Below, in pieces: positions 467 to 5,282 of a DNA stretch of 5,329 nt (position 1 is its first letter; every line of letters starts with the position of its first letter). Below the pieces are notes generated by a model. That model made no database searches, was not told where the DNA came from, and saw only the letters and a program-made list of their open reading frames with translations. This stretch comes from a virus (Duplodnaviria > Heunggongvirae > Uroviricota > Caudoviricetes), in the IMG/VR virus record IMGVR_UViG_2529292735_000011. One strand, 5' to 3'. The translations under genes were made by a program, and so were the position numbers.

Positions 467-1362
467 ATGCCCGCCGTTGACCTTTCACAGTTACCGGAAC
501 CCGCCATCATCGCGGAGCCTGACTTTGAGGCAATTCTGGCTGACACAAAGGCCATGATGATTGCGTCCTATCCTGCCGAACAGCGTGAAGCCGTTTCCGC
601 CGCGCTGGAGCTGGAATCGGAACCCCTGAACGTTATCGCTCAACCATGTCGTTTCGTGAAATGCTGTTACGCCAGCGGGTTAACGAGGGCGCACGCGCCT
701 GCATGTTAAGCCACAGCGCCGGGACAGACCTGGACAACCTCGCGGGAAATATGAACACAAAGCGCCTGGTTATCACTCCGGCAACGGATACCACCGACGC
801 GGTGATGGAGAGCGACACCTCGCTGAGACTGCGGGCGCAGCGGGCGTATGACGGCCTGAGTGTTGCTGGCCCGTCAGGTGCATACGAGTATTTTGCCCGC
901 AGCGCCAGCGGTCTGGTGCGTGATGCGCGGGCTATCAGTCCGTCTCCGGCAAATGTGACGGTTTCCATCCTGTCCACTGAGGGCGACGGCACAGCAACGG
1001 AGGCGTTGCTTAATACCGTTCGCGCCGTTCTGAATGCAGAGGACACCCGCCCGGTGGCCGACCGCCTGACCGTACAGAGCGCCAGAATCGTGACATGGCG
1101 GCTGAATGCAAAACTGTACTTTTACCCCGGCCCGGAATCCGAACCTATTCTGGCCGCGGCAGAATCGTCATTCAGGAAGTGGCTGGCTGAACAGGGGCTT
1201 ATCGGTCAGGACGTGGCGTTGTCCGCCATTGCTGCCGCACTGCATGTGCACGGTGTGCAACGCGTGGAGATAATCGAACCCACACAGAATATGGCCATCA
1301 GCGACATACAGGCAGCGCGCTGTGAGTCATTCACCATCAGTGAAGGTGGGCGCAATGAGTAA
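467..1362 (+). pseudogene. J: Baseplate protein gpJ (T4 gp6-like), interrupted by a -1 frameshift near 641-646 (pseudogene or sequencing indel)
   Basis: ATG at 467 follows the W stop by 3 nt. The N-terminal part, 467..~643, reads MPAVDLSQLPEP...ESEPLNVIAQ and then runs to a stop at 707-709. The homology continues in the -1 frame as (T)MSFREMLLRQRVNEGARA... in the ORF 646..1362. Joined across the shift the product is about the length of P2 gpJ and is collinear with it. The stop at 1360-1362 overlaps the I start (ATGAGTAA). Confidence 0.75.
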
Positions 1363-1886
1363 TTCACTGTTACCACCATCAGCCAGCAATTTCATGCGTT
1401 GTGCCGAAGCCGTCGGAACACGCATTACAGACATTCCGGTCGACCTCAACACGCTGTGGTCGCCGGACACCTGCCCGGTGCACCTGCTGCCTTATCTCGC
1501 CTGGGCGTTTTCCGTTGACCGCTGGGATCGCAACTGGCCGGAAGAGACAAAGCGACAGGTGATTCGTGATGCATGGCTGATACACCGACACAAAGGGACC
1601 ATCAGCGCACTGCGCAGGGCCATTGAGCCGCTGGGATACCTCATTCGCGTGTCTGAGTGGTGGGAGTTCGGCGGAGAACCGGGAACATTTACCGTTGAAG
1701 TCGGCACGCTGGACAGTGGCGTGACGGAGGAAATGTATCTGGAAATGGAGCGGTTGATTGCTGATGCCCGCCCGGTCAGCCGCCACACTGACAGGGCTGA
1801 ATATCATTCAGGAGATCCCGGGGGATATTTTCGCGGCGGCAGCAACTTACGACGGTGAAGTCATTACCATTTATCCGGACGATTAA
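1355..1886 (+). pseudogene. I: Baseplate protein gpI, probable +1 frameshift near 1784-1790 (contiguous ORF reads 1355..1858; homologous C-terminus continues in another frame to 1886)
   Basis: ATG at 1355 overlaps the J stop. The translation MSNSLLPPSASNF...LLPYLAWAFSVDRWD...HKGTISALRRAIEPLGYLI...EMERLIADARPVSRH matches gpI. After ...SRH the annotated frame gives an unrelated tail and stops at 1856-1858. The frame shifted by one reads LTGLNIIQEIPGDIFAAAATYDGEVITIYPDD and stops at 1884-1886, 2 nt before the H start; this resembles my recollection of the P2 gpI C-terminus. Confidence 0.6.
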
Positions 1887-2432
1887 GCATGAGTACCACA
1901 ACACGAAAATTTAAAACCATTATCACTGATACTGGTGCCAAAAAATTAGCTCAGGCTGCCGCGCCAGATGGTAATCCTGTCCGCCTGACTCATATGGCCG
2001 TGGGCGACGGTGGCGGCACGTTGCCCACACCAGACAGTAAGCAGACCCGTCTGGTGCATGAGGTGTGGCGACATACTGTTAATCGCGTCATCCTGGACGC
2101 AACACATCAGAACCGCATTATTGCGGAGCTGGTTATTCCTCCTGAAACGGGCGGATTCTGGATCCGGGAAATTGGTGTATTTGATGAGCACGGCGATTTG
2201 ATCGCGGTGGGCAATACTGCCGAAAGTTACAAACCAACCGTTGCCGAAGGATCCGGACGTGCACAAACATTTCGCACCATTCTGACCGTATCCAGCACTG
2301 CCACCGTGGCGCTTACCGTGGATAACACCATGGTGATGGCCACAGTGGATTACGTGGATGACAAACTGAAAGAGCATGAACAGTCACGACGTCACCCGGA
2401 CGCCTCGCTGACCGCAAAAGGCTTTTGTTCAA

Positions 2433-2910
2433 CTCAGTAGCGCCACTAACAGCGTGTCTGAAACGCAGGCTGCAACGCCGAAAGCAGTAAAGGCCGCGTA
2501 TGATCTTGCTAACGGGAAATATACTGCGCAGGATGCCACCACAGCGCGAAAAGGCCTTGTCCAGCTCAGTAGCGCCACCAACAGCGATTCTGAAACGCTG
2601 GCGGCAACACCAATGGCGGTAAAGGCAGCATATGACCTTGCTAACGGGAAATATACTGCGCAGGATGCCACCACAGCGCGGAAAGGCCTTGTCCAGCTCA
2701 GTAGCGCCACCAACAGCACGTCTGAAGCACTGGCCGCAACACCGAAAGCGGTAAAGACAGCATATGACCTTGCTAACGGGAAATATACCGCTCAGGACGC
2801 TACGACAGCACAAAAAGGGATTGTCCAGCTAAGCAGCGCGACTAACAGCACATCTGAAACGCTTGCCGCGACACCGAAAGCAGTGAAAGCAGCTAATGAC
2901 AATGCGAATG
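2433..2910 (+). repeat. In-frame 132-bp tandem repeat inside H (about 3.5 copies, 44-aa unit [44 protein letters not shown])
   Basis: Unit starts at 2433, 2565, 2697 and 2829, all exactly 132 nt apart. The first three copies are near-identical at nucleotide level; the fourth diverges after about 60-80 nt. The repeat also generates the spurious antisense ORFs 2313..2813 and 2429..2719. Confidence 0.9.
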
Positions 2911-3668
2911 GTCGGGTACCTTCTGCCCGTAAGGTGAATGGTAAGGCGCTTTCAGCGGATATTACACTGACGCCGAAAGATATTGGTACGCTTAACTCAA
3001 CAACTATGTCATTCAGCGGTGGTGCTGGTTGGTTCAAATTAGCAACGGTAACCATGCCGCAGGCGAGTTCTGTTGTTTCAATTACGTTGATTGGTGGCGC
3101 GGGATTTAACGTGGAGTCACCTCAACAGGCAGGTATATCTGAACTTGTTCTTCGTGCGGGAAATGGAAATCCAAAAGGTCTTACTGGTGCGTTATGGCGA
3201 CGGACATCGGTTGGATTTACTAATTTTGCATGGGTGAATACATCCGGTGATACCTATGATGTTTATGTTGAAATAGGTAATTACGCCACAGGTGTTAATA
3301 TTCAATGGGATTATACCAGTAACGCCAGCGTAACGATTCATACTTCACCAGCATATTCTGCTAATAAGCCGGAAGGATTAACGGACGGTTCTGTTTATTC
3401 GCTGTATATTTCGCCTCATGAACTTTATCCGGTTGGCGCACCGATCCCTTGGCCATCAGATACCGTTCCGTCTGGTTATGCCCTGATGCAGGGGCAGACT
3501 TTTGACAAATCTGCATACCCGAAACTTGCAGTCGCTTATCCGTCAGGCGTGATCCCTGATATGCGTGGCTGGACTATCAAGGGCAAACCTGCCAGTGGTC
3601 GTGCCGTATTGTCTCAGGAACAGGACGGCATTAAATCGCACACCCACAGCGCCAGCGCATCCAGTACT

Positions 3669-3758
3669 GATTTGGGGACGAAAACCACATCGTCGTTTGA
3701 TTACGGTACTAAAACGACCAGTTCATTTGATTACGGCACAAAAACCACAAATAGCGCA
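3669..3758 (+). repeat. Three tandem 30-nt / 10-aa units in the H distal region ([10 protein letters not shown] / [10 protein letters not shown] / [10 protein letters not shown])
   Basis: Read directly from the translation and nucleotides. The copies differ at synonymous positions, so this is an older protein-level repeat rather than a recent duplication. Confidence 0.55.
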
Positions 3759-4036
3759 GGAGCTCATTCACACAATATACCTGTTGGTCACACTGGCGCG
3801 GGGAATGGTGTATCAGCCGGTTATAACGCTGCGTTAGGTACTGGTACCACGTCGAGCGCAGGAGGGCATGCTCACAATGTATATATCGGTGCCCATAACC
3901 ACACTATCGGCATTGGTGCTCATGCCCATTCTGTCATTATTGGTCCCCACGGACACACCATCACCGTTAATGCTACGGGGAACGCAGAAAACACCGTAAA
4001 AAACATCGCATTTAACTATATTGTGAGGCTTGCATA

Positions 4037-4615
4037 ATGACATTCAGAATGAGTGAACAATCACGGACCATAAAAATTTATAATCTACTGACCGGAACCA
4101 ATGAGTTTATTGGTGAAGGTGATGCACACATTCCACCTCATACAGGTCTGCCTGCAAACAGTACCGATATTGCCCCGCCAGATATTCCGGCTGGCTTCGT
4201 GGCCGTTTTCAACAGTGATGAGGCATCGTGGCATCTCGTTGAAGACCATCGGGGTAAAACGGTTTATGACGTGGCATCAGGGGACTCGTTATTTATTTCT
4301 GAACTCGGTCCATTACCGGAAAATGTTACCTGGTTGTCGCCGTATGGAGAGTATCAAAAGTGGAACGGCACATCCTGGGTGAAAGATGCAGAAGCAGAAA
4401 AACTGTTTCGGATAAGGGAGGCGGAAGAAACAAAAAACAGCCTGATGCAGGTAGCCAGCGAGCATATTGCGCCACTTCAGGATGCCGTAGATTTGGATAT
4501 TGCAACGGAGGAAGAGGCATCGTTACTGGCTGCATGGAAGACATACCGGGTATTGTTGAATCGTGTTAATACAGCGGTAGCAGCGGAAGTTGAGTGGCCA
4601 GTCGCCCCACAATAA
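4037..4615 (+). CDS. tfa: Tail fibre assembly chaperone (lambda Tfa-like, with a P2 gpG-like C-terminal end)
   Basis: 192-aa ORF whose ATG overlaps the H stop (TAATG), with GTGAGG upstream. The sequence [54 protein letters not shown]... is very close to my recollection of lambda Tfa. The C-terminal ...[26 protein letters not shown] resembles the conserved end of P2 gpG. It sits immediately downstream of the fibre gene, as cognate chaperones do. Confidence 0.85.
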
Positions 4616-4658: not shown

Positions 4659-5231
4659 CTATTTATACAATACAACACCGCTCTTTTTAGTTATATATGT
4701 GCAGTTCGATGGTATATCTTTATTTATAAAAGACATTGCACCTATTTTTACATTATCCCCAATTTTACGTGATAATCCAATGATGCAACAATTAGCTCCG
4801 ATATCAACGTTACTACCAATTTTTACTCTTGAACCAGGCATGTCACCATCTATCTGCCCAATGGTAGTATTCTGCCGTAACACCAGATTTTCACCAGCAT
4901 CAACAGCAAAATGAACAACAATTCCAGCATGATGGGGAATTGTTAACCCTTTTCCAATATTTGCGCCCAATCCAATTTCACAACCAAATTTGTTAATTAT
5001 TTTATTGTTTAACTTTTTGGCTGCTGTCTTATGTAATTTATTACCATTAATATACATTTCGTTAGCCAACCGCCACCAGAAAAGGAAATTCCGGTTACGC
5101 TGTTTTTTCTCTCTTAAAAGCCTCCAGATATCCATACGTTTCCGCCGAATTACTTCATATTTCCAGAAGTTTTTTAAATTAGTAGAGTTCCCAAATAAAA
5201 CAAAGTGAATTGCCATTAAGTAAGACAGCAC
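4659..5231 (-). CDS. Hexapeptide-repeat (left-handed beta-helix) O-acetyltransferase, WcaB / serine acetyltransferase (CysE) family-like; AT-rich cargo gene
   Basis: Minus-strand ORF with stop TAG at 4659-4661. The six-frame track extends it to 5264, but the best start is the GTG at 5231-5229, which lies 6 nt after a strong SD AAGGAG (5243-5238). An ATG at 5216 is an alternative. The core ...GCEIGLGANIGKGLTIPHHAGIVVHFAVDAGENLVLRQNTTIGQ...VKIGSNVDIGANCCIIG...IGDNVKIGAMSFINKDIP has the [LIV]-G-x-x-x-x hexapeptide periodicity and the I-x-H-H-x-G-I-V-V motif of the CysE/WcaB/NodL transferase family. It is visibly AT-rich with A/T-rich codons, unlike the upstream phage genes. Confidence 0.75.
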   Translation of the reverse strand: MLSYLMAIHFVLFGNSTNLKNFWKYEVIRRKRMDIWRLLREKKQRNRNFLFWWRLANEMYINGNKLHKTAAKKLNNKIINKFGCEIGLGANIGKGLTIPHHAGIVVHFAVDAGENLVLRQNTTIGQIDGDMPGSRVKIGSNVDIGANCCIIGLSRKIGDNVKIGAMSFINKDIPSNCTYITKKSGVVLYK

Positions 5232-5282
5232 GATAATCTCCTTAATTATTATTTCAGACCACACATGTTATAAGGTTAAGAG

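Follow-up and report, generated by a model that had tools for sequence, protein, structure and literature searches.

The 132-bp tandem repeat in tail-fibre gene H of the analysed DNA (the window, meaning the whole stretch of 5,329 bp) is an ordinary, already catalogued tail-fibre module that needs no special explanation. Taken jointly, our results made it very probable that the repeat is a standard PF03406 block, that its 3.5-unit state is an old allele shared by many prophages, that this fibre family gains and loses whole units, and that the H gene carrying the array is frameshifted in this contig. The significance of these results lies mostly in the correct annotation of the repeat and of the frameshifted H, J, and I genes.

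Genetic Context of the Repeat

The 5,329-bp window corresponded to the entire contig AIHM01000016.1 of the draft assembly GCA_000250455.2 of Escherichia coli DEC14C. On it lay the tail-baseplate module of a P2-like prophage (P88/Xuanwuvirus type), with the following features:

Upstream of W (113-463): 3' end of V, the first gene in the order
113-463: W (PF04965), in the gene order W-J-I-H-tfa
467-1362: J (Baseplate_J)
1355-1858: I (Tail_P2_I)
1889-4037, plus strand: tail-fibre gene H as a whole (PF12571, four copies of PF03406, Collar PF07484)
1889-2440, plus strand: 5' ORF of H, with the N-terminal baseplate-attachment domain (PF12571, Phage_tail_fib, E = 4e-55) and a premature TAG at 2438-2440
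2427-4037, plus strand: remainder of H in the +1 frame, with the array, the Collar domain (PF07484), and a distal part rich in His-x-His and 10-residue repeats
4037-4615, plus strand: tail-fibre assembly (chaperone) gene (PF02413, Caudo_TAP, E = 6e-39)
4659-5264, minus strand: hexapeptide-repeat acetyltransferase gene of low GC content (36-41%)

The nearest relative among complete genomes was E. coli A1 (L001), which was 97.1% identical over the whole window and had the same gene order. In this genome, H was annotated as a single 715-aa 'phage tail protein', and the counterpart of the gene at 4037-4615 was annotated as 'tail fiber assembly protein'. The PF12571 N-terminus of H and its placement behind the baseplate genes W, J, and I agreed with a P2 gpH-type fibre. 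Together with the four PF03406 stretches, the Collar domain, the neighbouring tail-fibre assembly gene, and the order W-J-I-H-tfa, they confirmed that the repeat is a block within a tail fibre of this type, as the preliminary description had proposed.

Two further observations were made around the array-bearing gene. Distally, H contained another short tandem repeat at 3681-3750 (30-bp period, 2.3 copies, a 10-residue motif), and His-x-His segments were repeated at 3744-3890, where a direct repeat of 45 nt was located at 3744 and at 3846; such short repeats and His-x-His segments are typical of fibre tips. The acetyltransferase gene at 4659-5264 was located between the tail-fibre assembly gene and tail genes, and in the A1 prophage it is a 'serine acetyltransferase' by annotation. 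The gene resembles prophage cargo (a moron), and modification of surface polysaccharide is possibly its role.

Organization of the Tandem Array

Tandem Repeats Finder reported an array with a 132-bp period and 3.7 copies at 2416-2900 (84% matches, score 646), and a separate repeat search of the window revealed three in-register copies at 132-bp spacing. The period equals 44 codons (132 = 3 x 44). In the Pfam analysis, the array was matched by four PF03406 (Phage_fiber_2) stretches with 244.4 bits against a cut-off of 22, which is well above chance. In codon register, the array extended over about 2417-2915 and was made up of three complete units of 44 aa followed by a partial one:

2417-2549, plus strand: unit 1 (U1), beginning KGF, 133 nt long because of an extra T
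2423-2426, plus strand: T4 run with one extra T in the third codon of U1, giving a +1 frameshift
2550-2681, plus strand: unit 2 (U2), 44 aa
2682-2813, plus strand: unit 3 (U3), 44 aa
2814-2915, plus strand: partial unit 4 (U4), 34 aa, covered by the fourth PF03406 stretch

Tandem units of about 40-44 residues inside a tail-fibre protein, with a PF02413 chaperone gene next to it, are what is expected of the PF03406 repeat. Within U4, likeness to the other units was lost after about 81 nt, where the variable C-terminal part starts.

The preliminary description had placed about 3.5 head-to-tail copies of a 44-aa (132-bp) unit at 2433-2910. The repeat itself was borne out by Tandem Repeats Finder, by the in-register copies, and by the four PF03406 stretches, and the coordinates were roughly correct in comparison with the codon-register array at 2417-2915. 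The very high nucleotide identity attributed to the first three copies was overstated, since the full units were only 83-87% identical. The DNA identity was 87.1% between U1 and U2, 82.6% between U1 and U3, and 86.4% between U2 and U3, corresponding to differences at 17-23 of 132 nt (13-17% of positions). The longest exact repeat within the array was 44 nt. At the protein level, 38-40 of the 44 residues were identical between full units.

Two repetitive ORFs on the minus strand, at 2313-2813 (166 aa) and 2429-2719 (96 aa), spanned the array. These long antisense ORFs occur because a stop-free antisense frame is repeated; nothing supports their being coding, and they were rejected as a by-product of the repeat.

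Frameshift in H and Indels in J and I

The frameshift of H was overlooked in the preliminary description, and it is the most useful correction to it. In the alignment to E. coli A1 (L001), the T4 site was GGCTTTTGTT in the window versus GGCTTTGTT in the relative. The T-run at 2423-2426 was TTT in all relatives examined and TTTT only in the window. The H ORF from 1889 stops at the TAG at 2438-2440 to give a 183-aa product, and the array and the rest of the gene are in the +1 frame. H was thus split into ORFs at 1889-2440 and 2454-4037, and the single continuous ORF expected of a P2 gpH-type gene was not found. No Shine-Dalgarno-like sequence was found upstream of the GTG at 2454. The 183-aa product (EHX95794.1, 'H protein [E. 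coli DEC14C]') was recorded for this contig only, among all assemblies indexed. When one T was removed, H conceptually encoded 715 aa, and 697 of the 715 residues matched the intact proteins of the IMG/VR loci L011 and L012. Because the one-base insertion at the start of U1 breaks the frame, H in the contig as written is a pseudogene.

The comparison of the window with L001 revealed exactly three indels in the whole window, each of a single base. In addition to the extra T in H, J was altered from AAA to AA at about 641 (637-648), and I contained an extra C at about 1788 (1783-1795); both were private to the window in comparison with L001. These frameshifts hit three essential tail genes, J, I, and H, within 1.8 kb. 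All 40 of the 40 complete-genome relatives listed were two bases shorter than the window across 1300-3000, which agrees with the extra bases in I and H seen against L001. Draft-sequencing error and real prophage decay were about equally likely as the origin of the three indels. Since either the prophage is defective or the draft sequence is wrong, the DEC14C fibre should not be treated as intact.

A second, independent lesion of H was observed in other prophages (L086-L089, locus coordinates 4001-4549) as a deletion of GG at the position corresponding to window 2420-2421, which lies two bases upstream of the T-run position of the window and reads into the same out-of-frame TAG. The 182-aa product of this lineage (P0123) was found on 118 contigs, the longest of 5.3 Mb, and the lineage is widespread. 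J and I were intact in this lineage, so its H pseudogene is real and common. The nearness of the GG deletion to the T4 run arises partly because one cluster groups products of similar length.

We also considered whether the output of full-length fibre is regulated at the T4 site by a programmed or phase-variable frameshift. The UUU_U sequence would let tRNA-Phe re-pair in the +1 frame, and the GG deletion of the widespread P0123 lineage (118 contigs) arose nearby and independently. However, the extra T was present on a single contig among all assemblies indexed, the intact relatives all had T3 and one continuous ORF, and ordinary phase variation would need a run longer than 4 nt. Unrelated private indels in J and I lie on the same contig, and the proximity of the P0123 lesion is partly a search effect, since this lineage was found through a cluster of length-similar products. 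A regulated frameshift at the T4 site is therefore extremely improbable. Programmed frameshifting at UUU_U was rejected, as the allele is unique to the contig and neither the slippery site nor the split frame is conserved among homologues.

Copy Number among Homologues and Its Change

The preliminary description had proposed counting the units in H/Stf homologues. We collected an IMG/VR sample using only the non-repeat N-terminal domain as bait, and for counting we constructed an HMM from 65 distinct units. Of the 60 complete ORFs, 7 had one motif start, 15 had two, 26 had three, 10 had four, 1 had seven, and 1 had eight, and the 120 best protein matches contained 3-6 motif starts; both samples are skewed to close relatives, and many of their members come from drafts in which the copy number may be wrong. 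With 1-8 motif starts observed, 3.5 copies are not uniform across the family. The value of four motif starts in the window is common and within this range. Canonical P2 (NC_001895, gpH of 669 aa) had two motif starts, equivalent to 1.5 units. The statement that P2 gpH carries fewer copies was thus right for NC_001895; the P2-labelled record NC_070905 has 3.5 units.

For distant genera, we used a sample of one genome per species, including Xenorhabdus, Photorhabdus, Symbiopectobacterium, Pectobacterium, Yersinia, and others. Exactly one unit was found at the same position in 51 of the 57 complete homologues, and none was found in the other 6. These counts were unchanged at relaxed HMM thresholds. 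Because the distant genera have no or one unit and canonical P2 has only two motif starts, the comparison indicates that multi-unit arrays are a derived, polymorphic trait of Escherichia-type fibres.

The IMG/VR fibres were then grouped by their post-array region at an identity of at least 90%. The unit count varied in 7 of the 15 multi-member C-terminal clusters, mostly in exact 44-aa steps, and fibre lengths within clusters were 656/700/744, 671/715, 666/798, 775/951, and 678/722 aa. The 671/715-aa group is the window's own fibre type. For this type, a single recent event could be reconstructed, and it was a contraction. The locus L006 carried the window array minus exactly 132 bp and thus had one unit fewer. 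Its U1 was a hybrid that matched window U1 over nt 1-86 and window U2 over nt 87-132, and the units after it were identical to window U3 and U4, with unit 2 of L006 equal to window U3. These junction data indicate that recombination or slippage between U1 and U2 removed precisely 132 bp from a window-like array and so gave rise to L006. The direction of the event follows from parsimony: because U2 is 13% diverged from its neighbours, a deletion in L006 is favoured over an insertion in the window lineage. U2 of phage 503458 was likewise a mosaic, composed of U3-like and U1-like segments.

Two fibres had the opposite appearance. L031 (8 motif starts) contained three consecutive 132-bp units that were 100% identical, and L023 (7 motif starts by HMM) contained one 100%-identical unit pair. 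The C-terminal types of both also exist with 4 motif starts. The identical units are either genuinely recent expansions or draft-assembly artefacts. The hybrid junction of L006 and the 44-aa steps within clusters supported, at the family level, the earlier suggestion that copy number changes by unequal recombination. Homologous recombination or slippage between units thus adds or removes whole 132-bp units in frame within the family. The survey, with its reconstructed junction, documents the gain and loss of whole units among otherwise equal fibres.

Age of the Array and Reliability of Its Copy Number

The expansion had been described as recent, and this did not hold. Between unit pairs, 8-14 codon differences were synonymous versus 4-6 non-synonymous, and such mostly synonymous differences indicate long divergence with purifying selection on the protein. 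Some window units were nearer to units of other phages than to their own neighbours. Window U2 was 94% identical to U3 of NC_070905 versus 87% to window U1 and 86% to window U3. Window U1 shared 97% identity with U1 of phage 503458, and window U3 shared 90% identity with U2 of the same phage. At an identity of at least 99%, the array also recurred in 27 complete genome records of E. coli whose hosts were unrelated, and the array of strain A1 (host echidna) was 99.8% identical to that of the window. L011 and L012 differed from the window by 0-1 nt per unit, and U2-U4 of the window were identical to those of E. coli A1 and of L011/L012. In the 40 close relatives listed, the array length was in every case the same as in the window, extra bases aside, and the 3.5-unit organization was also present in NC_070905, a second P2 record. 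Neither hallmark of a recent tandem expansion was observed: the units were 83-87% identical, as compared with 100% in L031 and L023, and the closest relatives did not carry fewer copies. The sequence evidence indicates that the 3.5-unit state is an old, widely shared allele.

A recent, lineage-specific expansion in the DEC14C prophage, from a P2-like 1.5 units to 3.5 units, would fit some of the wider comparisons. Canonical P2 has only two motif starts, distant genera have none or one, multi-unit arrays are a derived state when the family is viewed as a whole, and real cases of expansion exist elsewhere, namely the three identical units of L031 and the identical pair of L023. It is nevertheless highly unlikely, because the window units differ from one another at 17-23 of 132 nt and are closer to units of other phages than to each other, because the same array recurs in the 27 complete records, and because 3.5 units occur in NC_070905 and in a lambda-type Stf gene as well.

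We considered it just as unlikely that the copy number is an assembly artefact, with the array collapsed or expanded in the draft, although the preliminary description had raised this concern. The window is a short draft contig of 5,329 bp with three suspicious single-base indels, and short-read contigs often stop at the first unit. Since the units differ at 13-17% of positions, reads of at least 100 nt resolve them. A collapse of the array is unlikely, as no exact repeat within it exceeds 44 nt and as independent complete genomes carry the same array: U2-U4 are as in E. coli A1 and L011/L012, and the 40 complete genomes listed share its length. The copy number was thus reproduced in independent complete genomes, and an old shared allele of 3.5 units is preferred over both alternatives.

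The premature ends of short-read contigs were observed in the cluster of the N-terminal product (1889-2437), which had 411 members. Ten of the 15 members listed were 'partial' with 171-200 aa, and the two partial members that were inspected ended 20-24 residues into U1. A matching cluster of C-terminal pieces begins just past the array. The array is therefore a contig break point that is left unassembled in many short-read E. coli assemblies, most plausibly because unit DNA sits in several prophages per genome.

Repeat DNA as a Probable Site of Module Exchange

The 60 complete fibres, most of which had N-terminal domains of at least 96% identity, fell into 28 distinct C-terminal clusters. These clusters all diverged inside the last partial unit, just past ...AVK. 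Unit DNA was present in 2,293 of 5,426 E. coli genomes, with a median of 2 and a maximum of 14 sites per genome, and the array DNA matched lambda-type Stf genes at 85-88% identity. Strain N58 (L169, 2097-5204, NZ_CM165884.1) contained a lambda-type side-tail-fibre gene of 1,035 aa downstream of gpJ and lom. Its 3.5-unit array (aa 466-631) and exit sequence, AVKAAN.NANGR, were the same as in the window, at about 86% DNA identity, so that P2-like and lambdoid fibres share the array and the beginning of the distal module. The unit DNA, conserved in unrelated fibre genes, probably also provides a patch of homology through which distal receptor-binding modules are swapped.

These observations raise the possibility that the unit DNA is chiefly a recombination adaptor and that copy-number change is a by-product, a reading that complements the main explanation and that we regard as possible but somewhat short of an even chance. 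It is consistent with the 28 C-terminal clusters on nearly the same N-termini, all of which split within the last partial unit, with the spread of array DNA through lambda-type Stf genes and E. coli genomes, and with the shared array and exit sequence of the N58 gene. In addition, fibre segments are known to be exchanged horizontally between P2, Mu, P1, and lambda, as Haggard-Ljungquist and colleagues are said to have reported in 1992. However, one unit would suffice for this purpose, and distant genera have just one; the retention of 2-8 units with a protein under purifying selection is left unexplained. The standard PF03406 block with whole-unit turnover was kept as the main explanation, with exchange of distal modules beside it.

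Fibre Architecture and Length

The array joins a conserved N-terminal baseplate-attachment domain to an exchangeable distal part for receptor binding. With each unit gained or lost, the trimeric fibre presumably becomes one module longer or shorter, and we infer that every unit adds a fixed length to it. An AF2 monomer model of the array (195 aa, 25-sequence alignment) had a mean pLDDT of 43.4 and a pTM of 0.26; it was uninterpretable because the chain folds as a trimer. A PDB sequence search yielded only Mu gpS (5YVQ, 9KI1, 8JU3) with a single motif, and the PF03406 motif aligned to Mu gpS residues 91-155. The paper on the Mu cryo-EM structure does not describe the motif region (PMC11915804).

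The regression of fibre length on unit number had a slope of 20 aa per unit instead of 44 (r = 0.36, n = 39). The idea of a constant total fibre length maintained as units vary was rejected, because the signal was too weak and was confounded by phylogeny and C-terminal type. It is conceivable, although we think it rather unlikely, that the unit number tunes the reach of the fibre to the thickness of the O-antigen or capsule and that unit DNA splices receptor-binding modules between unrelated phages. If this were true, the frequent gain and loss of whole units (1-8 units with the same receptor-binding end) would be an evolvable length device in P2-like and lambda-type fibres. Engineers of P2-type or tailocin fibres could use unit gain and loss to test shaft length against adsorption.

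Comparison with Known Systems

The PF03406 'phage tail fibre repeat' was first noted in lambda Stf and occurs in K-12 StfR, P2 gpH, and Mu gpS. The window resembles this family in its four tandem matches, its 44-aa period, and its location in a tail-fibre protein whose gene precedes that of a Tfa chaperone, and it has nothing distinctive, with 4 motif starts inside the observed range of 1-8. The side tail fibres of prophages have been described as sharing a conserved domain, Pf2, about whose structure and function little was known (PMC3368898), and PF03406 is established as a repeat, although its structure is poorly characterised (PMC3368898, PMC8078820). A literature search for copy-number variation of the PF03406 repeat returned nothing specific.

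The window fibre shares with P2 gpH (NC_001895) and with P88/Xuanwuvirus fibres the PF12571 domain, the same position of a 17-residue lead-in, and the order W-J-I-H-G(tfa). In contrast, canonical P2 has 1.5 units and another distal part, whereas the window has 3.5 units, its gene is frameshifted, and its Collar/His-x-His distal part is shared with lambda-type Stf genes.

Modular repeats of this kind are known from other surface structures. The adenovirus fibre shaft is built of 15-residue pseudo-repeats whose number sets the length of the shaft. As in the window, a modular in-frame repeat lies between attachment and receptor-binding domains, and its number varies among related viruses. However, the sequence is unrelated to that of PF03406, presumably the fold is too, and for PF03406 a relation between unit number and fibre length is putative. 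In bacterial surface proteins, the copy number of tandem repeats varies through recombination or slippage between long in-frame repeats. The likeness consists in the in-frame gain or loss of whole units, in the hybrid junction of L006, and in the 100%-identical neighbours found where an expansion would be recent (L031). The units of the window differ in being 13-17% diverged, and their turnover should therefore be much slower than in near-identical arrays.
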